From: Cirrosporium novae-zelandiae | Taxonomy: Eukaryota | Length of the DNA stretch: 64,000 nucleotides | Direction: 5' to 3' | Assembly: GCA_026023565.1 (NCBI GenBank) | Contig: JAPETS010000002.1 | Location: 1,364,001 to 1,428,000, forward strand | Shown: positions 3,267-64,000 of the stretch, piece by piece | Layout of the letters: each line of letters begins with the position of its first letter | How positions within the stretch are numbered: position 1 is the first letter of the stretch | Made by a program: the position numbers and the translations under genes | Notes under the pieces: generated by a model | Told to the model about the DNA's origin: nothing | Databases searched by the model: none | What the model saw: the letters and a program-made list of their open reading frames with translations, nothing else

Positions 3267-6200
3267 ATGGCTGCTGCCAATGGCCTCGCCGCTGAATTGC
3301 ATCCGGATCATGGATCAAAAAATACTCTGAAACTAGAAAATGTAAGGTTTATTGCCTGGCCTGGTTTGTTTGTCCCACCACTGATTGTGTCTAGACCGAG
3401 AAACGAGATGCTCTCATCAAGATTGAGAAGAAATATCAGGCAAAATGGAGAGAAGACCGTATTTTCGAGGTCGATGCGCCTTCCAGCTCCGAGATACCTT
3501 ACGACACAATGCCCGCCGCCGAAATACGAAAAAAGCACCCCAAATTTTTTGGGACCATGGCATATCCTTATATGAATGGTTCTCTTCATGCCGGACATAG
3601 TTTTACAGCGAGTAAGGTGGAGTTCACCACTGGCTTTGCCAGAATGCAAGGGAAGAGGGCTCTTTTCCCTCTTGGATTCCATTGTACTGGTATGCCCATT
3701 AAGGCTTGTGCAGACAAGTTGGTAGAAGATGTTCAAAAGTTTGGCAAGAACTTTGAAAACTACAGCGAAGAGGAGGTTACCGAAACACCTGCTGCGGCTC
3801 CCACACAAGCTCAGACGAAAGAGGACATTACCAAATTCTCTGGAAAGAAGAGCAAGGCGGCTGCCAAAACGGTGAAGATGAAGTATCAATTCCAGATTAT
3901 GATGGCTCTAGGAATTCCAAAGGAAGAGATACACAAGTTCGCGGACGCTAGCCATTGGCTTGAATATTTCCCGCCCCTTTGCATTCAAGACCTCAATGAC
4001 TTTGGTGCCAGAATAGATTGGAGGAGACAGTTTGTTACTACCGATGCAAATCCTTATTATGACGCATTTGTTCGATGGCAAATGAACCGTCTCAAGGATC
4101 TAGGCAAGATTCTATACGGTAACAGATATACGATATACTCTCCAAAAGACGGCCAGCCGTGTATGGATCATGATAGAACAGAAGGCGAAGGAGTCGCACA
4201 AACAGAATATACAGCATTAAAACTTCAGGTCAAGGAGTGGGCGCCAAAGGCTGCGGAATTGATCAAGGGAAAGATTCCTGATTCAGCAAAGGTTTACTTT
4301 GTTCCTGCTACCCTTCGACCCGAGACCATGTATGGCCAGACGTGCTGTTTTGTCGGCCCAAAGATTATATATGGACTTTTCAAAGTGTCTGAAGAAGAGT
4401 ATTTCGTAGTAACCAAGCGTGCAGCATGGAACATGGCATTCCAAGGCCATTTCTTTGATAGCGAGCATTTCCCTCGTGATATCAGCGAACTACCAACTAT
4501 CGTGGAAATCCCAGGCTCTGCATTTATCGGTACTTTGGTTAATGCACCCCTTTCTGTCCATACCCAGGGGGTTAGAATTCTCCCTATGGAGACTGTCTTG
4601 GCAACAAAAGGTACCGGAGTGGTCACGTCGGTCCCATCCGATAGTCCGGATGATTATGCGACTGTCCTCGATCTTGCTAAAAAAGCAGATTACTATGGAA
4701 TTAAAAAAGAATGGGCTGAGCCTGAAGTGATCCCTATTATCGAAACCCCTTCCTATGGCAATCTAACCGCTCCCACTTTGGTAAAGCAAATGAAAATAAA
4801 TTCTCCGAAAGATGCCAATCAACTCGCCCAGGCAAAAGATCTTGCATATTCAGAGGGTTTCTACAAAGGAACAATGCTCATAGGAGAATTCAAAGGTAAG
4901 TCTGTTCAGGAAGCAAAAGATAAGGTGAGGGCAGCCCTTATCGCAAGCGGAGATGCGTTTCCTTTCGCCGATCCGAGTGGACGAGTCGTAAGCCGAAGTG
5001 GTGACGAATGCGTCGTTGCATACTTAGGCCAATGGTTCCTTAATTATGGTGAGAATGATTCTCAATGGCAAAAACAAGTACTCGATTACATCAACGACGG
5101 CCTTGAGACATTCAGTGCAGAAACTCTCCATGGCTTCCAAAAAAACATCGAATGGCTAAATCGATGGGCTTGTGCACGAACGTACGGGCTAGGTTCAAAA
5201 CTTCCATGGGATCAGAAATTCTTGGTTGAAAGTTTGAGCGACAGTACAATATACCAATCCTACTATACAATCGCTCATCTTCTGCATACAGATAGGTATG
5301 GTAAAACTGCAGGACCTCTGGGTGTGAAGCCCGAAAATATGATTGATGAAGTTTGGGACTACATCTACGCGAGGGCAGAACTAAGCGACGAATTGGTTAA
5401 GAAATCTGGCATCAGAAAGGAAGCCCTCCAGGCCATGAGAAGAGAATTTTCCTACTGGTATCCTCTGGATCTTCGAGTTTCTGGAAAGGATCTCATCCAA
5501 AACCATCTTACATTTTGGCTCTATGTCCATCTCGCTTTGTTCCCGAACGAATACTGGCCCAAGGGCGTTCGAGCTAACGGCCATCTGATGTTGAACGGTT
5601 CAAAGATGTCTAAAAGTACCGGTAATTTCCTTACACTTAGTCAAGCAGTCAAAAAGTATGGTGCAGACGCTACTCGGATAGCATTGGCTGATGCCGGAGA
5701 TGGTATTGAGGATGCAAATTTCGATGAAATGACGGCCAACAGCAGCATCCTTAGGCTTTTTACGCTTAAAGAATGGTGCGAAGAGACCATGAAGGATGAT
5801 AACCTTCGAACCGGTCCTGCAGATGTTTTCTGGGATAAACTATTTGATAACGAGATGAATAGTCTGGTTCACCAAGCTAGAGAGCATTATGAAGCGTACG
5901 TATATTTTTCCCCTTCTATGAATAAGGACTGATGAGACATTCAGGACGGATTATAAACTGGCTCTCAAGTCAGCCCTCTACGATTTCAATATTGCACGCG
6001 ATTTTTACCGGGAGGTCACTACAGCTGCGGGGATCGGCATGCATCGAGACATTATCCGACGGTTTATCGAATTGCAAGCTCTTATCGTTACCCCTGTCGC
6101 ACCACATTGGGCAGAGTATATTTGGCTCGAAGTTCTTCAAAAGGTGAGGAGACCCCCTTTTCTTGCCTCACTTGCGCTAATTACTGCAGTCTTCGACCAT

Positions 6201-33534: not shown

Positions 33535-34320
33535 AGGCTCCTGAAGACCAAGGTTGTTCTATTCACATCCACCCTCATCTTCACCACCATAACCATTTCT
33601 TATCCCTCCCCCTGGTCACCAATCCATAATCCAAAGCAACTCAACAGCGCCAACTAAAACCCAACCGACGAAACCCAGTGGCCACATCCATCCATATCCA
33701 TCTATATCTCCACCAGTTCAGAATCCAATGCAACTCAACTCAACTCAGCTCAGCTCAACTCAACTCAGCTCAGCTCAACTCAACTATAGACCCCTGAAGA
33801 CTAAGACTATTTGAATTATTTTCATCCACTCACCCATCCATCCACACCCTCACCACCATGGCCATTTCTCATCCCTCCTCCTGGTTACCAATCTACAATC
33901 CAACTTAACTCAACTCCACAACCACACCAACTCAACCGACCAAATCCAGTACTCACGTCTACCTACTCGGTCGGCCTAGTCAGCCCAATCTAACCCTTTC
34001 ACTAACCTAGTCTCCAAGTCACATCAACTCATAAACAGGCACCCAAGTCGTTCGCGCAGTATCTTTATTTATATCTCCAGACCAGGCCCAACCCAAACCG
34101 AGTACTCACGTCTACCTCCCTAGGAGACCCAGTCCACTCCTTTCACTAACCTACCCAGGTAGTCTCCCAAGTCTTTAACTTAACTCACCACAACCCAACT
34201 CAACAGCCCCAACCTAAATCCAACTGACAAAACCCAGTGCTCACATCCTCCTAATCGGTCAGCCCAGTCCACCCCTTTCACTACCCTAGCCTCCCAGGTC
34301 TTTAACTTGACCCAATCCAA
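33535..34320. repeat. Nested degenerate tandem duplications, C/A-rich
   Basis: Unit A (CCTGAAGAC.AAG...CACCACCAT..CCATTTCT.ATCCCTCC.CCTGGT.ACCAATC) at about 33540 and 33790. Unit B (AGT.CTCAC.TC...CC.AGTCCAC.CCTTTCACTA.CCTA...CAAGTC) at about 33945, 34098 and 34232. Confidence 0.75.
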
Positions 34321-35704
34321 CCACATCGACCACACTAACCCCATCAACCCCTTGACACCCACCCAAGCTATTCCTACAATATCCATCAAGCTATACCAAC
34401 CTCAACCCCAACATCTACACACCTACAAGACGCCAACTTAGCTCAAGGGCAGTCCTTATTCAAAACACACTCCCCAACATATCAAGGCATGCGTTCAATT
34501 ATTTAACTTTTGCATCTAGCATCAAGGGGAGGGGGATGTGTGGGTATGTGGATGTGTAGGAAGTGTGGGAATTATTTATTTATTACTCTAGTTGGTTGGT
34601 TTGTTAGGTTCATGGTACTTATATAGTTATATAGTTATATGGGTATCGTTATCTTATCACATCGCTCTGCTTGTATTTAGGGGGCAGTTTTTAGGGTAAG
34701 TATCTTTACTTTAGTTTATTTGGACCTCGAGATTGGTTACGAGGTTCTTGCTTGTGAGGAATGTGGATTCTTGTGTCTAGGTTTAAGTTCAAGTGTTGGT
34801 TTTGGTTTATCTCGTTATATACCCATTGAATCGGGTCGGCGATGTGATATAATATTGGCGAATGGGGAACAGAGAATCGAGTGTTAGGGTGCCAAAGGGT
34901 GCCAGAGAGGGATGTTCATAATTCCCTCATCCCTAATTTTTTCTTATCTAACTGTCTTTTTGCTTCTTCTTTGTTCTCAAATTCTTTTTTTAGGGGGGGG
35001 TAAGGGGTAGATATGTACGGATGGATGGATGGGTTATGGCTTATATATATGGGATATGAAATATCTAAAAGAAAGAAAATCTAAGTGGATAGGGAGTGGG
35101 GAAGGGAAGGGAAGCGAAGGGAGAGGTTAGGTGTATATCCTATCTTATATCCCACAACCCAGAACACCGATACCGACCAGACGAGTTGTATATAGCCAGC
35201 CAATTCACTAATTAACTAATCAGCGCTCTTAGGAAATCAAACCAAACCAAACCTAGTATTTTACTATCTATAGACTATATAGCATCGTCGCGATACATTT
35301 ACTGTACTGTACTGTACTGTACTGTATATTACCCAAACCAACCTACTTACCTACCTCTTTTCTTGCAGTTACTACACAAAGTATATATACCCTACTCTCT
35401 ATATCCTCTTATTTATTCTACCCCCAATCCCAATTCCAAACAAACAAACAAACCCCTAATCTAATCTCTCTGTCCAAGTCCAAATCCAAGTCCAAATCCA
35501 TATAAAAGTCTCAAAAACAAGAAAACAAGAAAATGAAAATTTTTATTCTATTATTATTCATTATATTGTTATTGCTGAAGGCCTTGAAAGCTTGAAAGCT
35601 TGAAAGCGTGTAATTAGCTCTTTACTTACTATTTGTATCTACCTACCCAAGTTACCTTGTACTTATATACTTGTACATAACCACTTACTTGCATATCCAC
35701 TCCT

Positions 35705-37790
35705 AACCCCAACCGATTCACCACCAACCTTCCCTTCCCTTCCCAGCCAAACTAGGACTAAGCAGCCCAATTTATTCACCCCCCCTACCTTCCTCAGCAC
35801 TGCGTTAGAGTCTACACAAGTATATATCCTATATCCTACATCCCATATACCCACATACCCACAAATAAATGAATAAATAAATAAAATCCCCTCAATCTAA
35901 TCCAATCCAATCCAATCTAACCCTCCCTCCTATCAAAGAAACAATAAAGAAAAAGAATACTCGAGATACGGAGATGAGGGAATGGGATAACTTAACTCTT
36001 GCTTCTGACAGTAAATATGTATATATGTTATATAAGTGGGGATTAGTTTATAGCTAATTAGGGATTTGTATGTATATATGTATGTATGTATGGATATAAA
36101 AAAAGTCAAAGTTAAAGTTAATGTGTGTAAAATCAATTTTTTTCTTTTAAATTATAGTATAGTATAGTATAGTATAGTATAGTTATATTTGTACTGTATG
36201 TTTTTTTTTTTTTTTTCGTGATTTAGAATTATGTATATAAATAATAACCAGCCACTTCTCCTTCCCTTAACTAAAATACTTGAAATAACTTTACTACTTT
36301 ACTACGACTACTAAATTTTTTTTAGAGAGTAGTCCACTTATACAATATATATATATATCTTACTCTACTTCTCACATCACATCCCTCCACATACTACATA
36401 CTATCATTTTATCCCCCCCCCCCCGGACTGCTCTTTTTCCGAATTCCTTCCTAATAAATTTCGTTTCGTTTTGTTGTTGTTTAGGTAAGTAGATAGGTAG
36501 GTGTGTGTATGTGTGTGGGTATGTGTGGAGGAAGTATCATAAAGAGTAGAGGAGGTGTTGTTGGGGGTTGTGTGTGTGTGTGGGGGGGGGGGGGGGGGGG
36601 GGGGGGAGTAAGGAGTAAGTAGGAATAAAGGGGCATGGATAACGGGTACAGTGGTTTATATATACATAACATACCTAGGTAGATATATATAAGAGACCGC
36701 TTAGACCAGACTACTTGGTTAAATTTTATTTTGGCTCCTACTACTCTACTCTATTCTACTCTACTAAACTAAACTAAAACTAAAAAAAAAAAAAAAAACC
36801 TTTCGTTCTTGACTTGACTTGGACTTGATTTGACGTCATTAGATTCGTAAAGTGTAAATGTTTAGTTTAGTCTATATAATTAGGGAAGGATAAGGGTGGT
36901 TGCTATTTATTTGAACCATGGATCATGAAGAAGGTAATCACCATGTAGAAAGAAATAATTATTTTATTCCTTCCTCATCCTTCGTCGTTCTTCAATAGGA
37001 GGAGGGTCCGATCTGGATCTTGGAAATTTTTTTTGGGAGAGAGAGGGGCTGATTGAGGCGTAGTAGATATAGATATGTGGGATATGGATATATACTTTGT
37101 TCAGTACTGTAGTAGGTGGGTGGGTATAATAAGTTTGGTTGGTTAGAAAAGGAGGGCTGGTGGTGAGTCGGTTGGTTGTGTTTATGTGAAATATATATAA
37201 AAAAAAAGGTCTGAAAACGATATATGAATAATAAAATGAATTATCATTATAAAAAAGAAAAAAAGAGGGCGGGGGGGGAAGATTAGCAGGGGTTGATTTT
37301 TATATATACTATTCTACCTAATATCATCATATAGTATATAGAAAGAAGCTAGTTATTTATTTATTTATTCCTCATCTTCGTATTTTTTTTATCGTTATTC
37401 GTCGTTCGTCAGTAGGAGGTTAGGTTAGACTAACGTTTATGAGTTTCATTAGGGGATTTTATTTGGAGGGGGTTAGGGTTGGTTGTGGGTAGATGGATAT
37501 AGATGGAGATAGGGGGGACTATGTATATAGGTATGCTCTTATGAAGGACTGTAGGAGGTGGATGTAAGCTGGTTGGGAAGGGAGGGCTGGTGGTGAATCG
37601 GTTGGTTGGTTGTATGTATTTAAATCATGAATTATGAAGGAAATATATACTGTGGTAGAAAATTAGCACAGATTAATTTTGACTTTTATACATACTATAC
37701 TAGCTAACATCACCATGTAGAAGCAGTTATTTGTTTATTCATTCATTCATTCCTCATCTTTTCACCCTCTTCGTCATTTTTCGGTACCCA
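35705..37790. repeat. About 250-300 bp local repeat family: one inverted copy (35705-36005), two direct copies (36935-37180, 37325-37615) and a partial copy overlapping the gene end at 37705-37780
   Basis: Shared blocks CACCATGTAGAA, TTCCTCATC, TCGTCGTTC..TAGGAGG and GGAGGGCTGGTGGTGA.TCGGTTGGTTG. Reverse complements (CAACCGATTCACCACCA, AAATAAAATCCCCT, ATACG.AGATGAGG) lie at 35709-35985. Confidence 0.75.
36582..36606 (+). repeat. Poly-G tract (about 25 G), G-quadruplex-capable
   Basis: Visible directly. A 12-C tract lies at 36413-36424. Confidence 0.9.
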
Positions 37791-38662
37791 CATCATCAGG
37801 GGCACGGTCTTCGAATTCAGTTCTCGGAAAATCTGTTTTGGTGGTTTTGTTAGCGAAGCACCATCCCGGATTCTGGATTCTGGGATATAGTGTGTATTGT
37901 TGTTATTAATGGCTTGTTGATGTTGGTAGATGATGAAATACAGTACCTGCCACGCCCTCGCCCACCAAACAAAACTCCACCCCCACCGCATCCAGCCCTC
38001 GGCATAGTGGACCCACCACCGCAGAGAAAAAAACATACCACTTACATTTCTGAACGAGCTATTCGGCAGCTCTCCATTCCAGCGATCCTCAACTTTCTCA
38101 ATCTTCCCACTCCAATCCCCACCCCCCACTGCATTATCCCTACCCTCATCCCACCAGATCTTCACCTCACTCTCAATCGTCTGTTCCTTTCTAATCTCCT
38201 TGATCATGTATCGCGTGCGTAGGTTCAGTGTTATGGGGTTCCCGGATGAGGTGACGGTGTGGGAGAGCCGCTCGATTGAGGAGAATGCGGCCTGTAGTCT
38301 GTACCACTGGGGTACGAATTCGGAGCGGCCAGTTGCGTGGGCGAGGGGGTCGGAGGAGGTGGCTGTGTCTTTCTAGAGGGAGCGCTTTTTTAGGGTCGGT
38401 TTGCCTGCGAAGAGCTGGTGGATGGGTGGGTGGCTGGATTAGTGTTGGTGTTGATGTTAGGTAGGGGTTTTAGGTAGGGAAATGGTTGAAGATCTAGAAA
38501 TTGAGTGGGGGATCTAGATGAGGGGGGGCTCACGTCGAGGACGCTGCCGATTAGTATTCTTTGGATGTCGTTTAATTTCACGTTGGGGACGGTGTTTATG
38601 TTGGTTGACCTCATTTGTTGGTCCCTTACATCACTACTTTCAGCCACCTGTCATGACACCAT
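37743..38662 (-). pseudogene. Fungal SnoaL/NTF2-like small protein gene with an in-frame TAG (pseudogene or editing-dependent gene)
   Basis: Three exons with canonical introns (38415-38533, 37833-38045): ...ILIGSVLD|LFAGKPTLKKRSL*KDTATSSDPLAHATGRSEFVPQWYRLQAAFSSIERL...KVEDRWNGELP|IFRELNSKTVP. TAG at 38373-38375. Start is ATG 38614, or ATG 38662 with a TGA at 38651-53. Confidence 0.7.
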
Positions 38663-38816
38663 GGCTAAACCCTCGTGCCCCTCTGTGGGGTTCTATTTAA
38701 AGTAGATCATGCATCCCCGACAGCCGCAGAGCCGCAAGTCAGTTACTACAGGTAGATCATCGACTCGATTGTTTGTAAGATTTTAACACGGTCAGGTATT
38801 TAGTTTAGCGTAGTTG

Positions 38817-39356
38817 TCATTGCTCTTGAACATGCCCAGCAGTGGCCACCTGTAGAATCTCTTCTTCAAGTCCCGGAACATGGATACACTCTACCCCTCC
38901 TGTTTCTAATTTTGTTCGTCCCATATTTTCACCTACAAACTTCTCCGGTTCCTTGACACCAATGTACACCTTGATGATCCCTTTTGCTCCATCATTTCTT
39001 GTCTTTAGGATTCGATCTACACAAGGCAAATTCCCGCTTAGTCTTTTCCCACAGGGCTCCATGGTTGTATATATAACTGTTCTATCGGGGAGTATTTTCC
39101 CCACAGCTTCTTCTCCGACATTGTGCGCAGAAGCATATTTCAGTAGACAGCATTGCTCCGCGTGAGTGTTTCCTGGAAGCTCCAATGTGTAGCCTGTGGC
39201 AAGTATATCATTTGTAGTTTCATTGACTAGAACGGCACCGACCCGAAAGTTTGTAGGTTTCGGGGGAGACTTTTGGGCAAGAGATAGGGCTAAGCGCATA
39301 TAATCTTGGGGATTTTGAGGTGGTAGGGGTGGAGATGCTGTGAACTTGGAAGTCAT
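38817..39356 (-). CDS. Stand-alone DRAP deaminase (Rib2 C-terminal-like, riboflavin biosynthesis), cytidine-deaminase fold
   Basis: NFRVGAVLV, GYTLELPGNTHAEQC, YTTMEPCGKRLSGNLPC (HAE...PC-x8-C zinc motif), VYIGVKEPEKFV. Confidence 0.85.
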   Translation of the reverse strand: MTSKFTASPPLPPQNPQDYMRLALSLAQKSPPKPTNFRVGAVLVNETTNDILATGYTLELPGNTHAEQCCLLKYASAHNVGEEAVGKILPDRTVIYTTMEPCGKRLSGNLPCVDRILKTRNDGAKGIIKVYIGVKEPEKFVGENMGRTKLETGGVECIHVPGLEEEILQVATAGHVQEQ

Positions 39357-39515
39357 GATGACTGTGAGCGAAAAGAATAGATAGATAGGTAGGTTCAAGT
39401 AGTGGCCTTTTCTCTATAATTATATAGGTATTTAGGTAATTATGGCTGGAGTGCTTTAAAAGTTTAGTGATAAGCTCTCCAAGCTTATCTTGCGCCCGTG
39501 GTTGGGTTCAATGGC

Positions 39516-39555
39516 TACGCGGGGTCGGTTAAATTAACTGCCGACGCGACGCGTT
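39516..39555. promoter_or_regulatory. Clustered MCB-like elements in the deaminase/DnaJ divergent promoter
   Basis: ACGCGACGCGT at 39544-39554 (contains ACGCGT) and ACGCG at about 39517. Confidence 0.5.
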
Positions 39556-39713
39556 TCACCCCAACAAACTACTTAGGTACTTAGCTTATGAAAATGAACA
39601 CCTACTACTGAGTACATCTCTCACTTATCTTTCACTTTTGCAAAAGCTTCCCGTAAAACTGTAGGCTCTTGTGACTGTCTTATCTTGGCACTTTTAGTAA
39701 TAAATCACGGAAA

Positions 39714-40690
39714 ATGCCTCCCAAAACCACCGACCTCAACGATGAACCTCCCACCTCAATCGATCCATACCAAATCCTTGGCATCGAGTCAACCGCAACT
39801 GCAGATGAGGTGAAAAAGGCCTATCGCAAGCAAGCCCTGAAATACCATCCAGGTTAATACTTGTCCAAATTAACCAACTTATCTTTGTGGCTAACCGATG
39901 ACTAGACAAAGCAAAGACCGAAGATAAAGATGAGGCTCATAAACAATTCCAAAACATCGCTTTTGCCTATGCAATATTATCCGATGAGCGAAGAAGACGT
40001 CGCTATGATACTACGGGAAATACGGCCGAGTCTCTGGATCTCGATGATGATGACTTTAACTGGATTGACTTTTTCCGCGAACAATACTCCAAAGTCGTTA
40101 CCGAAGCGGCTTTGGATAATATGAAAAACAACTACCAGGGCTCGGAGGAGGAGAAGCGAGATCTACTTGCTGCCTTTCAGAAGTACAAGGGCAAACTGAA
40201 TTCTGTGTACCAGCAGATTATGTTTGCAAACCCTCTAGAAGACGAGGATCGACTTCGAGAAATCATTGATCAAGCGATAGAGGATGAGGAAGTCGAAGCA
40301 TATGATGCATATATCAACGAGTCAGAAGCGAGCAAAAAGAGACGAATAAACAAGGCAATGAAGGAAGCAAAGGAAGCTGAAGCCGCACATGAGGAACTCA
40401 AGGAGAAAGGAAAAACCTCCAAAGGCAAAAAGCAAAAGGGTAAAACAGATGATATGGGAGACCTCGCCGCTCTCATTCAGCAAAGGCAGACATCAAGAGA
40501 AAACAACTTCTTCGATCATCTTGAAGCCAAATATGGTGGCAATAAGCGAGCTTCTCCAGATGAACCCCCCGAAGAAGCATTTCAGAAAACTGCTTCACGG
40601 AAAAAAGCACGAAAGAATGTGGATGACTCCCCACCTCCGGTGCAATCGAATGGTACCAAGAGTCGCAGATCCAGGAGGTCAAAGGCATAG
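39714..40690 (+). CDS. DnaJ-domain protein, DNAJC9-like
   Basis: DPYQILGI...[57 protein letters not shown]...[10 protein letters not shown]. Confidence 0.9.
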
Positions 40691-41967
40691 GGATATCTCA
40701 AGTTCAAAGATTAGAGAAAGTGGCCGCATGGGTATCGGCGCACCTTTGTCAAATGTAAGGGATGGATAGGACAATAATCCACAGTCTTCACATATTGGCG
40801 TTATAAGAATAATAGTGCTTAATGGACAGCATCTGGTACGGCAAAGGGATTGTCATGCTGTGATCTAAATGAATACGATAAAGATTACCAGGATAAATAA
40901 CATTAACGAATAGAGAGAGAATTACTCGTACAGGTCAAGCCTTGATCCACATAGCAGTGGAGATGCCGGTGGATATCAGTGGAGATATCAGTGGAGATAA
41001 AGGTTGCAGTAGGAGAGTAAACTTGCAGATCCAAAGACAACAAGAGGAATAGTGGCCGACGGGAGTGTGTTAGTCGTGCTGGGAGTGATCAGATGCAAGA
41101 TTGGATGCATGATGAATTACCACTGCTATTGATATATAGATATTAATAATTCGTGACTACCTAGGTATTTAATTATATAATATGGGCCTTAGTTTCTCGA
41201 GAATGGGGTAGGACAGCTAAGAGACAGCTAAAAAGTACGTTCGGAAGCCAAAAGGATTGTGGCAGTGGCTTTCCGGGCTCCTCAAGCGTTCCATAGTCCC
41301 CCCATAGCCTTTATTTGTCCCTGTTTCTCCACAATCAAATCCTCTATCAAAGTCCAACACCCAACTTTCTTCCCAACTAACCCCACATTACACAACATTA
41401 CCCAAACACATTTCAACTTAGTAGTCTGACAGTGCCCAAGGGTTCTTGAATTCAGTTCCCTAGATCCTGAAACACGACTATTATGACAAATCTCCTGGTA
41501 TCGCCAAGCCCTTTATGACACAGGGATACTCTGTAGCAGTTGTGTGCCCTGTGCACTCCAACCTCCCACCCTTTCACCTTTCACCTTCCGACCTCACCCA
41601 TTCAACATCTTTTTGGCAAAGTCCAAGACACCAAAATCAATCCAATTCTGCTGTTGAGAAAGTGACAGGTTCATCCTTACATTAATCTCATCTAGGATAT
41701 CCCTATTTCCATTACCTACCTATTTACGCCGCTCTTGTCGGAACCACTTAGAATCTCCGTTGTGCTCGCAATTGATCGCCACTGCGCGCAATAAACCCTC
41801 ACGCCTCTATCCGTCCATTCAACCATTTCGACACCTTAACGTCCCTTGCATATCACAAAAACATCGAAAAGTGGATTCGAATAGCTGCTTCGGCGGGTTT
41901 CCGAATATTCTAATCTGCCCAGATCAACGGTGGCAAGGCTATATTTCCCCGCGTCGAATCTACCATA

Positions 41968-44262: not shown

Positions 44263-45349
44263 TTCCATCATGTATCGCTCCTAGGTAGGAACCATGATTT
44301 ACGATTTTCACCAAAATTGGCAGGAAAGGAATATCTATTGCAAGGAGTTTTGACTTAACTTGGGCTAGGTATACCAGTTTCGGCGTGTAATGGAATTATG
44401 ATGACTGCAATGACAATTTTGATGAAACTGCCGGGAGAGGGCAGTCTGTATTGGAATTCACTGTACTTATTGGTCTGAGAAGAAGCTTGTGAATGAATAA
44501 TTAGATTTATCCTTGTTGCCAGCATTGCCATATGACGCCTTGAATGGACAGATAAGATAAGATAAATCAAGTCCGGGCGTCTTGGTCCAGTATTTACCTC
44601 GGCACTGTACCTAGGTCCTTTGTACGAGAAAATAACAACCTTCTGAAACGCACGTCATCATCTAATTAGTTTTAGCGATAGGGCGTAGGAGAGAATTGCT
44701 TGACTGAAGGATACTTTCACATTATTGAGCTTCGGCTTTTTAATACTAATTAGCCGAATCATCCTGTCCCACTACGTGACCACCTCTTACTTTCTATAAC
44801 GCTTTTTCTTTCCTTTTGATCCCGTTAAAAGAGATAGAGACAAATTCCATAGTTGCCATCGCCCTTGAATGTACTTAAGATTTAATTGCCAATTTTATTC
44901 TTGGGGTCTACCTGCAACCATCAAGGCAAGGGATACAATTTCATGAGACGAAATTCCCAATACCCCCAGGCATTGCAAATACAGATTGAAAACGCGAGGC
45001 CAATAGGGAAACCTCATGCTCATAGTTAATCAGAGGGGCTAAAATCTTTCATTAAAAGTGGGAAAAAGAAACATTTCCGATAATCGATGACCTCAAATTT
45101 TCTGGTGGGTTTAGACGCCTGGTATTATCATCATCTACGGTTACCTGAGTCTTTTAAACCATTGCACCCTATCACCATTCAGACTCATAATAAGTATCTC
45201 ATAGGTGTAAACAGCCTCGTTAGATGTCACATCAAGGGACATGACCCCGCTCCCATCAACCTCGTTTTCACCTCAACAAATGCAACAAAAAATCAACACC
45301 AGCCCGAATCCATCAAGACGTGCATAGTGAATCTTTCGCCGTCTTCAAG

Positions 45350-48300
45350 ATGGAGGTCTTTATTAGTAATGCTCCGTCAAATCTTAACCCGCAGCAACTC
45401 CGAAAGAAGCTTCAACCTCTGCTAGAAAGTCGCGCCATCACTACCTTTTCCTGCTACAAGCAGCTTCGAAAAAACTGGGCCAAACTTACTTTTATAGACT
45501 CCGATGTGCATAAAGCCAATGAATTCTTGGCTCTGCATGGCCAGATTGCACAAAATCGGTTTAGACCTCCCTACCCTCTTAATTTTGGGGAAGCTGGTCA
45601 ACCCCTGAATATCAAGCCTAGCTACCATCCTCCAGATGAATTCCTACTCCGCAATATGAGAGAAGAAGAGGCGAGGAAGTTGAGACCAGAAAACAGGAAG
45701 AAGGTGGAGCGAAAGCGCTCAAAGAAATCAAGTTTCAATATCAGGAGCCTCCATTGCGGTGTTTTGGACTACAATATGTCGGAACCTCAATACATCTCAT
45801 ATTTCCACGACCACCGGCCTGGCCTCATCAAATTCGGAAAATCAGCCCTAAAGGTCCAACTTAATTCAGAACCTCTTGAGTTTTTTGACAATGAGCTTAT
45901 TGCGACCTACGACATGATTAACCAGATCACCATCTCGGGGGGGTCTCTACCTTCAATCACCCTTTTCTTATATAATCCACCAAAGATTTATCGTGTAGCC
46001 GCGCTAGATTCGTCCGGATATGGTGGGAAACTCATGAGAAACAGGGTGCACTCTCTGAGTACTCTACATGATGGACCAGTCTCTACATGCATTGTTTACC
46101 GACTAGTGTTGGAAACATCGTCTGATATTAGGTTTTTGCTGGCTTTGAAGAGCGATGGTTTTCACATTCCAGAACCCTTCTTGTGGACAGTGCCAACCAT
46201 CAAACCTGATGTTAGCTATGATAAAGAGCACCGGGATTTCATGAAGACATTGGAAGATGAGGATTCTATCTTTTCTTGGGAGGTGAAATTTCAACTTCAC
46301 GCCCTCGTTTCGAATGGGATTCTCAGGCCAAACAAGGTGACGTGGCTATCCTCCTATATTGAAGATCTCTATCGTAAGATTGGCTCAGATAGGATGGTGA
46401 ACCTGATTCGAAAATTGGCCAAAAAATGTCCTTGGCCTGCACCTGATGCCGACCCATCATTCTTCAGTCCACACCAGCTGGTAGCTAAGCTTAGACACAT
46501 GGAATCTATGTCTCGGCTAGAAGAAACAGAGCTCTATGGGATTAGACGACTTCAGACAAATTCCGTCAAGATTCACAAAGTAACGGTAACTCCAGCCAGT
46601 ATCTATCTGGAGGGGCCATTATATGAAGGCAAAAACCGAGTATTGCGGCTATATGAAGATAATATTGACTCCTTCCTTCGAATAAATTTCACCGAGGAAG
46701 ATGGAGAGCCTCTTCAATTTGACCGACTTGCCTCTTTAGCATTCATCTTTTACGATGTTTTTGATGGTGTGCTTCGGTATGGGATCAATATTGGCGGTCG
46801 TAGATTTCACTTTCTAGGATTTTCACATTCGTCACTTCGAGCTCAGTCGTGCTGGTTTATGGCCCCTTTTCTTCATGACCACGGGGTAGTGAACCGAAAT
46901 AGACTCATATCCAATCTAGGAGATTTCAGCCAAATGCCTTCTGCAGCGAAATGTGCAGCGAGGATTGGCCAGGCATTTTCAGATACACAAACTTCTATCA
47001 AGATTGATCGAGCTGTCGTGAGTTTCAACCTTCCAGACGTGAAGAAGAATGGACGTGTCTTTAGCGATGGGGTTGGAATAATATCCCAATCCCTACTACG
47101 AACCATGTGGAAAGATGATCGGAAATCTATGAAATGGAAGCCTACTTCTTACCAGATTCGCTATGCAGGTATTACCCACAATTGGTGCTTACGGTCATGG
47201 TAGAGCTTGATATTCTAACTATCGTTTTAGGAGCAAAGGGTATGATATCGCTTGACTCTCGCCTCAAAGGAGATGCTCTAATGCTACGACCATCGATGGT
47301 GAAATTCCGTTCCGAGGCCTCTAACCTTGAGATCTGTGGAGCAGCGGGTGCACCCCTTCTCACATTCTTGAACAGACAGCTAATCAAGATACTAGAAGAT
47401 TTAGGTGTGGCGGAAAAATCATTTCTTCGCCTTCAAAAAGAGGAAGTCGATCGCTTAAAGGTGATTACCAAATATACTGCCTATGCCTCAAGTTTCCTAG
47501 AAAGTACACATGTTGGAATTGCAGCTCGAATGCCTTGGCTTCTTCTTGCTTTGGAGAGAATGGGGCTAGACTATCTCTGCGACCCCTTTTTGCGCCAGGT
47601 TGTACAATTGACTGTCATTGTCAGGCTTCGTGAACTCAAATATAAAGCTCGTATCCCTTTGGGGAACGCTGTTACAATGTATGGTATTATGGATGAGACT
47701 GGCTTCCTTAAAGAAGGGCAGATATACTGCACTCTCTCCGACGGGAATGTACTCTCGGGTCACGTCGTCGTGACGCGTGCACCTTCGGTTCATCCAGGCG
47801 ATGTCCAAGTGGCTGAAGCCGTAGAAGTCCCGGAAGATTCATCATTGAGGGATCTGAAAAACTGTGTTGTGTTTAGCCAACATGGAAGCCGAGATCTTCC
47901 TAGCATGCTTAGCGGTGGAGATTTGGATGGAGATCTCTACTCTGTGATATTCGATGAAGATCTTTTTCCCACGCATACAGTAATGGCTGCCGATTATCCA
48001 AAAGCACCCGAGGTACCCTTGGGTCGACCCGTTGAAGTGGTTGACATTACAACCCACTTCCTTAAATTCATGGAGAACGACCATCTTGGTCGTATTTGCA
48101 ATAATCACCTTGCGCTAGCGGATCAATCCCCTCAGGGAACCAAAGACCTGAGATGCATACTCTTGGCCGAGATGGCATCAACAGCAGTAGATTTTTCCAA
48201 GACCGGAGAGCCTGTCAATATATCAAAAATGCCCAAGATGAGTAGAGTCAGAGCAGACTTTATGGCACCATCCCCCCGTGTCCACGTCTCCAAGAACATT

Positions 48301-49261
48301 GACATTGCTGGTCGGGAAGTTGATGATGGCCCTGATGACGATGACGAGGATTCTAGTTTGACTACCCCAAAATACCGGTATTATGAAAGCCAGAAGGTCC
48401 TAGGGAAATTGTATCGTCAAATCGACGAGAGAGCGTTTTTCGATGAGATGGAAAGCCACATGAAGACTAAAAGTAAGAAGAACGCTAAAACGGATATCCT
48501 ATCTGAAGTCTTTGATTACGTCTTGGATCAGGTTGGTGATTTGGAATGGGAACATCAAATTGATGCCGCAAGGGATATTAAAGAAATGTAAGTCGTAATT
48601 GTCATTGATGGTATTCTTCCTTTTTTCTTTTACTCTTTTCTTTGTCCTCCTCACACCGCCAATATAATAATTACAATCCTCACTCCACTAACCCATATCC
48701 CTCCAATCCAGGTACGAAGAAAATCTCGAATCCCTCCAATACACCTATTCCTTCAGCCCCTGGTCCATCCGCCTCACCGAAGTCGAAGTCTTTATCGGAA
48801 ACATTGTCGACCGGGAGCGCGGCATGACCCCCAAACAACGCGAGACCTCACTCGGCCTGCGCGAAGAATTCGACGTCCTAGTCCGCTATGTCGTCAGTCG
48901 AATGTTGGATTCCGGTGAAAACAAAGACAAGAATGAAGATGCCACCGAAGAGAAAGACAACGAATCCTTGGAGAGAACCGTAGCTTGTCTTTCCGTTGCA
49001 GTCGACGCAGCCAGGTCTCGCTTGGCAAAGGGGAACCGGGATCAGCCTGCTGGTGATCAGGATCAAGATCAAGATCAGGGAGACCTAGTTAGCTGGGGTT
49101 GGATCGCAGCGGCGGTATGTCTCAGCGAAGTCGAGAAATGGAAAAGGGCCGCTGCCAGGGAGGCTGGGGTTGGGTCTGCGTATGATGATGCGGATGATCT
49201 CTTTTCTGAGGATGGATGGAATGGGGTTACGCTTGGTGGTGGGGCTAAGGGTTGGTATTGA
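45350..49261 (+). CDS. Cellular RNA-dependent RNA polymerase (RNA silencing; tentatively SAD-1/RRP-3 type, with RRM-like N-terminus)
   Basis: NRVLR, FLGFSHSSLR, AKCAARIGQAFS, FSDGVG, QIRYAG|AKG, LSGGDLDGD catalytic motif, AVDFSKTG; introns 47169-47231 and 48588-48711. Confidence 0.95.
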
Positions 49262-61898: not shown

Positions 61899-64000
61899 AT
61901 GGCCACAACAACAACCATGGCCAATACCGCAGCAGCATCCACCTCAAATGGAAAACCGCAGCCCCGTCAAACTCGAGTCAATCCGACAAGAATTTCCAAG
62001 ACAAATGCCAGACCACTTTACTATGGGCGCAATTTCGCAATGAGTGCTGCTCCTGATCCAGAACCAGAAACAACTGCGCCAGGTTTCTTTCCCGCCATCA
62101 CACACTTTACCGACGCGATATCCGCACTACCCAAAGAAGTGATTCGACATCTTTCTCTATTGAAAGAAGTCGATGCGAAGTCCTATAGCTCCGAGGAAGC
62201 CATTCCTGGCTTGATTAACCAGATTATGAACTCCTCCTCGCATCCTCATTCTTCCACGTCTACTCTGAGATCCATAGATCCATCCGCCGTTTCTACACCC
62301 GATCATTTCAATTCGAGTAATCATTCGACCACACAAGATGTTAACCCTATCTCGAGACTTAGGCTCGCTGTTGAAAAGGAGCCATTGGAGGATTTAAAAC
62401 CGTTCAAAAACCTTCGTGATCTGATGTGCAATATGATGACAACACTGGATGAAAAGAATCATGTTTTGATGACCGCAAATTCTGCGCTCAACAAACATTT
62501 GGTTCGGCTTGACGAAATACTCCCTCACGTTGAAAACGAAATCGCCGAAGAGGCACGGCTAGGAAGCCTAGCGCATTGGGCTTATTTAGACAAGTTAACA
62601 GCGAAGGGAAATGGGAATTCGACAGGTGAACGAACCAGAAATACCGGGAGGGCTCATCATTCACCGGTTGGCAATAACACCACACATGACCACGAGGCAG
62701 TTTCGAGGAGCGAAACAAGGAGGGAGGCATTGGCAAGGAAGAGGAATCACAACGGAGACCCCGACTTTGATAACCATGGATCCCACACCAAGCGAACAAC
62801 AGGGGCGTCCAAAGCTCGCAAAGGTATTGAAGCCACAGCGGTGGCAGCCAGCGGCCAGGCCGGTCCAGCTACCACCAACACCACCACAGCACCTGCACCT
62901 GTAAAGCGACGAAGGATCGAAAAGCCGAACGCCCATACTAGTAATGTTGAGCAATCGCGGAACCCACCGCAAAACAATGTTGGTAATACTTCTCAAGCTG
63001 CCGGCGGAAACCAGGCAGAAGTACCCATCCCTGAAGTAGCGAAGAAACGTGGAAGAGGGCCGAATAATCCTAACGCTTCCAACAAAAGAAGGTGTGCTGA
63101 ACCACCTCATCAAATCGTGTAGCTATTGCTAACTCATGCCTCATTCAGAAATGGCACCAACACGTCTGTGGCAGGCTCTCCGTTGCTCGCTTCTTCTCCT
63201 GTTATTGGAACTTTTTCAACCACGAGAGGAAGTCCCGCTGCCCCTCAACGTCCTGGTTCATCGAGAGTCCGCCAGAATTCTATCCAATCCGTACTCTCAG
63301 AAGCCCGACAGCGACCTCCTTCTCAAGCTTCAAACAAACTTCTGAATCCACTTGGGATTATGACATCAACAGCCGACCCTAATGCTATTGCAGGGCTGGT
63401 CCCTAACAGTCTTGTTGACATAAAACCTGCGACCAAAGATGTTTCAAATCCAATCAGTGAACAAATACCGGCAGAGGAGGAGGTTCGACCACAAACAAAA
63501 GTAGGGGGCTCTGTTTCTACCAATAAAAATGGCAACAAATCTATGAAAAATGAACCGACTGATTCCAATGGAGATCCAATGAAAGGTACCGAGACTCCCC
63601 CCGGAGTGACTGCGCGTGGAGTGAAGACGTCCAAGACATCGACACCTGTAAATGCTACATTTTCGGATTCTGCACGATCAAGACCTGCCCGTGGCACGGA
63701 ACCACTACCTAAACGGTCACACAAGAAGGGTCAAGGTTTAGCTGCACAGCGCCTTGCTGCCGTAGCAGCCGACGAAGAAGGGTCTTCGTTGCAAGGTGAT
63801 GATGATGACGATGATGACGAGAGCGAACCCCGTTATTGTTACTGTAACGGTGTGAGCTATGGAGAGATGGTTGCTTGTGATGCAGACAACTGTCGAGGGG
63901 AATGGTTTCATCTGGATTGTATTGGAATGACTAAACCTCCTAAACAAAATGGTAAAAAATCCACCTTCTCTGTTAGATTATGAAGCTAATATCGGATAAT
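61899..64000 (+). CDS. ING-family PHD finger chromatin protein (Pho23/ING3-like); runs off the window end
   Basis: FTDAISALPKEVIRHLSLLKEVDAK (ING N-domain); LDEKNHVL; PHD EPRYCYCNGVSYGEMVACDADNCRGEWFHLDCIG; intron about 63092-63149 and another starting about 63952. Confidence 0.9.

Follow-up and report, generated by a model that had tools for sequence, protein, structure and literature searches.

Very probably, the three-exon gene on the minus strand at positions 37743-38605 of the window, as the whole analysed stretch of 64,000 nucleotides from Cirrosporium novae-zelandiae is called here, once encoded a small SnoaL/NTF2-fold protein of Pezizomycotina and is now a young unitary pseudogene. 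Ordinary gene decay, not RNA editing, is the most likely explanation of its state, since the gene is without its start region and has gained one stop codon along with a number of damaging changes. A deletion of approximately 200-300 bp would have removed the 5' UTR, the start codon and the first codons, and the released gene would have been drifting since, with some 0.04 substitutions accumulated per site. The gene is the sole copy at the ancestral DnaJ-Rib2 position, and it was found to be single-copy in genome G000 in a search which scored the best candidates only, on a possibly incomplete assembly. No other functional copy was found, and several lesions are joined by a relaxation of selection relative to the neighbouring genes, as is usual for unitary pseudogenes.

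Codons are numbered from the ATG at 38662 (minus strand). Exon 1 persists as a coding remnant (TNINT...GSVLD, 38605-38534) recognised by tblastn with homologues and in the homologue column table, and is followed by intron 1 (38415-38533, 119 nt), which extends from GTGAGC (38533) to CAG (38415) and occupies the same position in the related loci L002, L004, L008 and L017. Exon 2 (38414-38046) represents the SnoaL/NTF2-like core, as indicated by SnoaL_2 matches in the family and by a structure model of the homologue P0009. Intron 2 (37833-37946) measures 114 nt from a distal and 213 nt from a proximal donor and ends with the acceptor CAG at 37833, while exon 3 comprises 37832-37743. Both introns have normal ends, so that the splice sites are intact as originally predicted; frameshifts are absent. 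An inverted repeat (37946-70/38332-56) lies inside the gene region.

Upstream, an intact Rib2-type riboflavin-pathway deaminase (38817-39356, minus strand) is recognised by a Pfam Inv-AAD match and resembles PDB 7DRY/7DRZ at E ~1e-55, structures of A. oryzae Rib2 (PMC8256712). It is followed by a DnaJ/DNAJC9-type gene (main exon 39902-40690, plus strand) which is syntenic in related loci, and the neighbourhood of deaminase and DnaJ gene recurs at many of them. Elsewhere in the window a noncoding cluster of degenerate direct repeats (33560-34330), with 10-nt CAACT arrays as well as units at a spacing of 135-270 bp, and a gene for a fungal RNA-dependent RNA polymerase that includes a PH-like domain (45245-48918, plus strand) were observed.

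Homologues were gathered as 21 close proteins, as 619 cluster representatives, 150 of them among the matches listed, and as 80 metagenome loci, 66 of which are distinct over exon 2. Pfam SnoaL_2 was matched by 43 of 50 family members, and the model of the intact homologue P0009 (pLDDT 88.8) was similar to limonene epoxide hydrolase and other NTF2-like folds (TM 0.54-0.56, E ~1e-5), with a Pfam score of 22.6 bits that lies below the cut-off of 27. Both the curved beta-sheet of an alpha+beta fold and the profile match were thus present in the intact homologues on which they were examined, and by this modelling the gene is predicted to encode a small SnoaL/NTF2-fold protein of Pezizomycotina. In P0014 as well as in L002, L004 and L008 an upstream ATG or an N-terminal extension occurs which, judged by eye, may resemble a mitochondrial presequence.

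All codons named by the original prediction are present on the minus strand, namely CTC TAG AAA (38378-38370), TGA (38653-51), AGA (38300-298), ATG (38207-05), GAG (38198-96) and AGA (38192-90). The premature TAG (W57*, 38373-38375) indeed replaces tryptophan, which is found in 89 of 92 aligned homologues, and TGG occupies the position in 60 of 66 distinct loci, five others being unaligned there and one misaligned across the intron. It is not an assembly slip, since contigs of sequencing run X1 (depth 311-342) contained no differing letter over 36800-41200, although X1 is possibly the assembly's own source and hence not independent evidence for the TAG; the matches obtained from runs X2 and X3 were all short and unrelated. 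Likewise, AGA at 38298-38300 (G82R, G>A) falls on a conserved column with Gly in 123 of 129 homologues, and GAG at 38196-38198 (G116E, G>A) on one with Gly in 140 of 154 and Glu in none. Two further replacements were only partly borne out: the ATG at 38205-07 was taken to stand for Val, which is found in merely 80 of 154 homologues beside Lys in 40 and Thr in 31, and the AGA at 38190-92 for Gly, which is found in 100 of 154, with Arg occurring naturally in P0017 and L030.

The view that the gene is otherwise intact could not be upheld, as its 5' end is missing and as L54R, F63S and D222G strike conserved columns. L54R (CGC, T>G, 38382-38384) affects a Leu shared by 85 of 91 homologues, F63S (TCC, T>C, 38355-38357) a Phe within the FxDP motif present in 95 of 100, and D222G (A>G, 37766-64) a conserved column in exon 3, where V213M (G>A, 37793-91) is also situated; none of the first three can be repaired by A-to-I editing. 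The retained gene thus carries seven damaging changes, of which these three are not G>A.

Conserved columns were defined as those with the same residue in at least 80% of homologues, and at eight of the 70 such columns the window shows rare residues (L15Q, L54R, W57*, F63S, G82R, G116E, V213M and D222G), L15Q being situated in the replaced 5' part, outside the retained gene. Among 42 stop-free loci with at least 60 conserved columns, rare residues were absent in 24, while 11 had one and seven had two. When the 27 loci possessing both genes were compared, the window departed at 18 of 109 SnoaL-like columns against 0 of 68 columns of the deaminase (Fisher P=1.4e-4), and a long branch of the lineage is therefore no explanation; part of these 18 departures belongs to the normal variation of the family, the 27-locus set being rich in near-identical loci. 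In a wider and more divergent set of proteins, five of 60 full-core homologues departed at as many columns as the window. The excess changes imply the roughly 0.04 substitutions per site given above, for which about 1.1 stops are expected (short isoform, assumed mutation weights) and one is seen. TGG>TAG makes up 25% of the stop-gain weight with assumed transition weights and 11% with uniform rates. That the stop is a TAG derived from TGG is accounted for by G:C>A:T transitions being the commonest and by conserved columns being rich in Gly and Trp.

The second stop of the original prediction, an upstream ATG followed by TGA (38653-51) as a mutated Trp codon, proved to be noncoding: ATG GTG TCA TGA C belongs to a conserved promoter-like motif, ATGGTGTCATGAC (38650-38662, minus strand), which aligns to a motif upstream of orthologues. 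A second promoter-like motif, TGATGTAA (38626-38633, minus strand), matches TGATGYAA. Distances were measured in the 40 loci with at least 500 bp of upstream sequence among 52 that could be anchored. GTCATGA, which occurs only eight times in the window on both strands, was located upstream of codon Thr20 in 18 of the 40 loci, at a distance of 259-370 bp as opposed to 52 bp in the window, and TGATGYAA in 12 of the 40, at 233-345 bp as opposed to 28 bp. Taken together, three motifs gave 34 hits in 24 of the 40 loci, all 201-400 bp upstream, compared with 28-57 bp from Thr20 in the window; these counts overstate independence, since the choice of motifs followed an inspection of the window together with a small number of loci, and since relatedness is common among the loci. 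The distance from motif to start ATG amounted to 200-227 bp in 12 loci, and that from the stop of the deaminase to Thr20 to 355-536 bp in 19 tandem loci and 211 bp in the window. The distance between motifs and coding sequence has hence collapsed in the window, where the conserved L-x-I-E-N upstream of Thr20 reads Q-Q-M-R-S. Shortened spacing and replaced residues place the putative deletion junction at 38606-38625 (minus strand), where a chance in-frame ATG is found at 38614-12. As an alternative to the deletion, the 5' region may be naturally shorter, with a new start at 38614.

A motif with the consensus ATGACGTCATGAC, which, like ATGGTGTCATGAC, we take to be CRE-like, is kept upstream of the gene in the distant loci L030, L041, L043, L057, L063 and L065 and in the window at 38626-38662. 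Its conservation hints at a possible bZIP or stress control of the SnoaL-like family.

Decay was also seen elsewhere in the family. In-frame stops in aligned codons of the contig sequences occurred in six of 80 loci (L010, L033, L034, L061, L062 and L074), and with L053 seven copies look decayed, by stops, a frameshift or a lost donor. L062, a syntenic orthologue, is broken by a frameshift as well as by stops, whereas L074 possesses TAG at the same Trp and Arg at Gly82 in addition to a CAA>TAA stop which editing is not able to repair. Given several decayed copies, the SnoaL-like gene has apparently been lost repeatedly.

Among the rival explanations, a death of the gene through RIP or through strand-biased deamination of cytosine, set off by the tandem 3' repeats or by the deaminase next to it, is very unlikely. 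The conserved columns do contain four G>A and no C>T changes, but 71% of all opportunities for either change are G>A, so that the ratio of 4:0 is unremarkable (P=0.25) and the clustered G-to-A changes of the original prediction show no excess over chance once opportunities are counted. Measured against all change types, the G>A changes gave P=0.007 under uniform rates and 0.23 with assumed transition weights, and four G>A among seven lesions P=0.15 with assumed transition weights. The genome encodes an intact 716-aa open frame of a methylase, which judged by its motifs is presumably RID-like, and three degenerate tandem units (36958-37772, spacing 397 and 382 bp) span the last codons of the gene and its 3' flank. 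The duplications of the 3' end noticed earlier thus exist, and RIP is able to leak into flanking DNA (PMC7882544), but the units are only ~71% alike, in alignments of 90-130 bp, and overlap the gene in just its last codons; a long near-identical duplication was not found in or beside this single-copy gene. Its RIP indices (product 0.63, substrate 1.17, composite -0.54) equal those of the neighbouring genes, and all three lie outside the thresholds given in the part of PMC7882544 that treats them (product >1.15, substrate <=0.75, composite >0), so that no RIP signature was found in the gene. Four-fold third positions are GC-rich (A18 C37 G20 T5, 71% GC), TGG is retained at 14 of 15 Trp codons, and the sequence contexts of the lesions are mixed, as had been pointed out, with a 5' base of T twice, C twice and G three times. 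Hence decay was rightly considered, while its RIP-like or strand-biased form is not supported, with negative indices and a non-significant G>A excess. An APOBEC-like mutator role of the neighbouring deaminase was rejected, because the enzyme is Rib2 and adjoins intact copies of the gene at many loci.

Independently of this, the only DNA methyltransferase of the kind found in the genome, which we take to be DIM-2-like (L085/L091, G000:C96, ~255700-259000; best PDB match 9BAP/9BAQ, E 1e-69), is split in the contig sequence into parts of 362, 266 and 491 aa, because motif I contains a TGA and the frame shifts at a run of A's; no TAG is involved in either lesion. Loss of Dim2 was reported in Zymoseptoria tritici (PMC8016269).

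A-to-I editing of the premature-stop (PSC) type, by which a stage-specific Tad2/Tad3 would turn UAG into UGG, perhaps together with other A's, and allow a working protein to be translated starting with the ATG at 38614, is highly improbable. The TAG at a conserved Trp corresponds to the commonest origin of PSC sites (PMC10776026), and its context (U-1, G+1, A+3) matches the fungal preference as outlined in PMC11156358, yet U-1 and G+1 are supplied by any UAG. In a predicted hairpin with a loop of 4 nt the A takes up the first loop position, but this structure has only -2.6 kcal/mol and is equalled by 79 of 200 shuffles. G>A accounts for four of the seven lesions, but U stands at -1 in only two of seven candidate A's, and L54R, F63S, D222G and the 5' deletion would remain unrepaired. 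With its second stop noncoding and its lineage outside the known editing classes, the restorative reading of the original prediction is not supported. No case of TAG in an otherwise intact gene was encountered among the 66 distinct related loci, and the seven lesions, the 5' loss and the contrast to the deaminase columns speak against a remainder that is functional or under purifying selection.

The taxonomic setting points in the same direction. According to PMC11156358, editing is on record for Sordariomycetes and Pyronema, and none was detected in A. nidulans or B. cinerea, while Cirrosporium novae-zelandiae is a Xylobotryomycete, saprobic on wood, whose sexual morphs are described as unknown (PMC6712537). 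The LeuRS encoded in the window is 100% identical to a protein of C. novae-zelandiae, the following matches reaching at most 80%. Editing depends on an Ame1 carrying MV500-501, a form that evolved in Sordariomycetes, and it originated separately in Pyronema (PMC11087585), so that a third origin is conceivable. Ame1 is a DUF726 protein; in neither of the two DUF726 genes found in G000 does an MV pair occur among the 40 residues that precede the catalytic Ser, and the DUF726 of L089 has K-S ~30 residues upstream of that Ser, like the ancestral KN, both sites being placed by counting. A search of G000 for the MAT alpha-box gave no match, and neither did the controls. A scan of kinase genes for TAG at Trp yielded 138 matches (125 of 220 candidates scored), 20 of them with TAG; on inspection of all 20 none appeared to be an exon-internal Trp stop, 12 TAGs lying in script-called introns and eight near the 5' edge of the match, in acceptor-like contexts, in a sample too small to rule out a rate near 0.5%. 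Two of the kinase matches (G000:C35:435974-436835 and C47:435975-436836) have identical scores and near-identical coordinates and possibly reflect a duplicated contig. In-frame stops in other genes of the window (ING/PHD at 63120, LeuRS at 5930 and the RNA-dependent RNA polymerase) appear, when inspected, to lie in introns. Very little credence can be given to the wider proposal that Xylobotryomycetes independently evolved A-to-I mRNA editing, as a third origin after Sordariomycetes and Pezizomycetes, and that in a cryptic sexual or pycnidial stage it would restore the UAG along with a number of Gly/Val codons in a shortened gene starting at 38614.

Least probable of all is that the TAG represents an error or a private allele of one isolate with a gene functional elsewhere in the species, for although the sequence is present in a single run, possibly the source of the assembly, the contigs of that run at depth >300 lack any variant and six other lesions as well as the 5' deletion would also need to be private.

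Apart from the question of decay, the family displays a second 5' splice donor, conserved 31-35 codons past the first, for example in L002, L004, L008, L016, L017, L026 and L032. In the window, the donors GTAAGT (38045) and GTACTG (37946) enclose a segment of 33 codons (37947-38045, minus strand) which is still open and contains eight Trp in 33 residues; 28 of the 66 distinct loci keep it in frame and free of stops. A pS of 0.68 versus a pN of 0.30 (105 pairs, 15 loci) indicates that the Trp-rich segment is under protein-level selection, and it was modelled as two helices in the homologue P0004. Judged from these sequence features, the second donor suggests a predicted, optional membrane-associated isoform. 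A literature search for a Trp-rich alternative-splice isoform of fungal SnoaL-like proteins returned nothing relevant and was too limited to call the isoform unpublished.

As a dead gene the locus is of little importance in itself, and its value is that of a caution: a lone TAG at a Trp codon together with a few G-to-A changes is the appearance of early decay, and a TAG at this very Trp is also present in L074, a copy that is clearly dead. Were editing true, a third class would be added to the range of fungal mRNA editing, and possibly a fungus without known sex as well. The conserved Trp-rich splice variant is a lead likelier to be real than editing.

Compared with known systems, the family joins the SnoaL-like/NTF2-fold proteins (PF12680 SnoaL_2, PF10184 DUF2358; limonene-1,2-epoxide hydrolase fold), whose fold is shared by the model of the intact P0009; it differs from solved structures of this kind in being only 12-20% identical and in the optional Trp-rich insert of many members. 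With RIP the window shares a TGG>TAG change, which is TpG>TpA, and nearby repeats, but the gene is without the RIP dinucleotide signature, its GC3 is high, most TGG codons are intact and the contexts are mixed. The 71 PSC pseudogenes of Fusarium graminearum (Qi et al. 2024, PMC10776026) resemble it by an in-frame TAG at Trp, one G>A away from TGG, and by intact splice sites; one supplementary file of that study names neither "SnoaL" nor "NTF2", and other tables may name the family differently. Their stops, according to the account in PMC10776026, have their origin inside Sordariomycetes and have been conserved from one species to another, whereas the stop in the window is found in one Xylobotryomycete, alongside unrepairable lesions and a 5' deletion. 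With unitary pseudogenes, finally, the window gene has in common a single syntenic copy, a nonsense change with mixed missense changes, a lost start region and intact neighbours, and it differs in nothing unusual, being young enough to have no frameshift.
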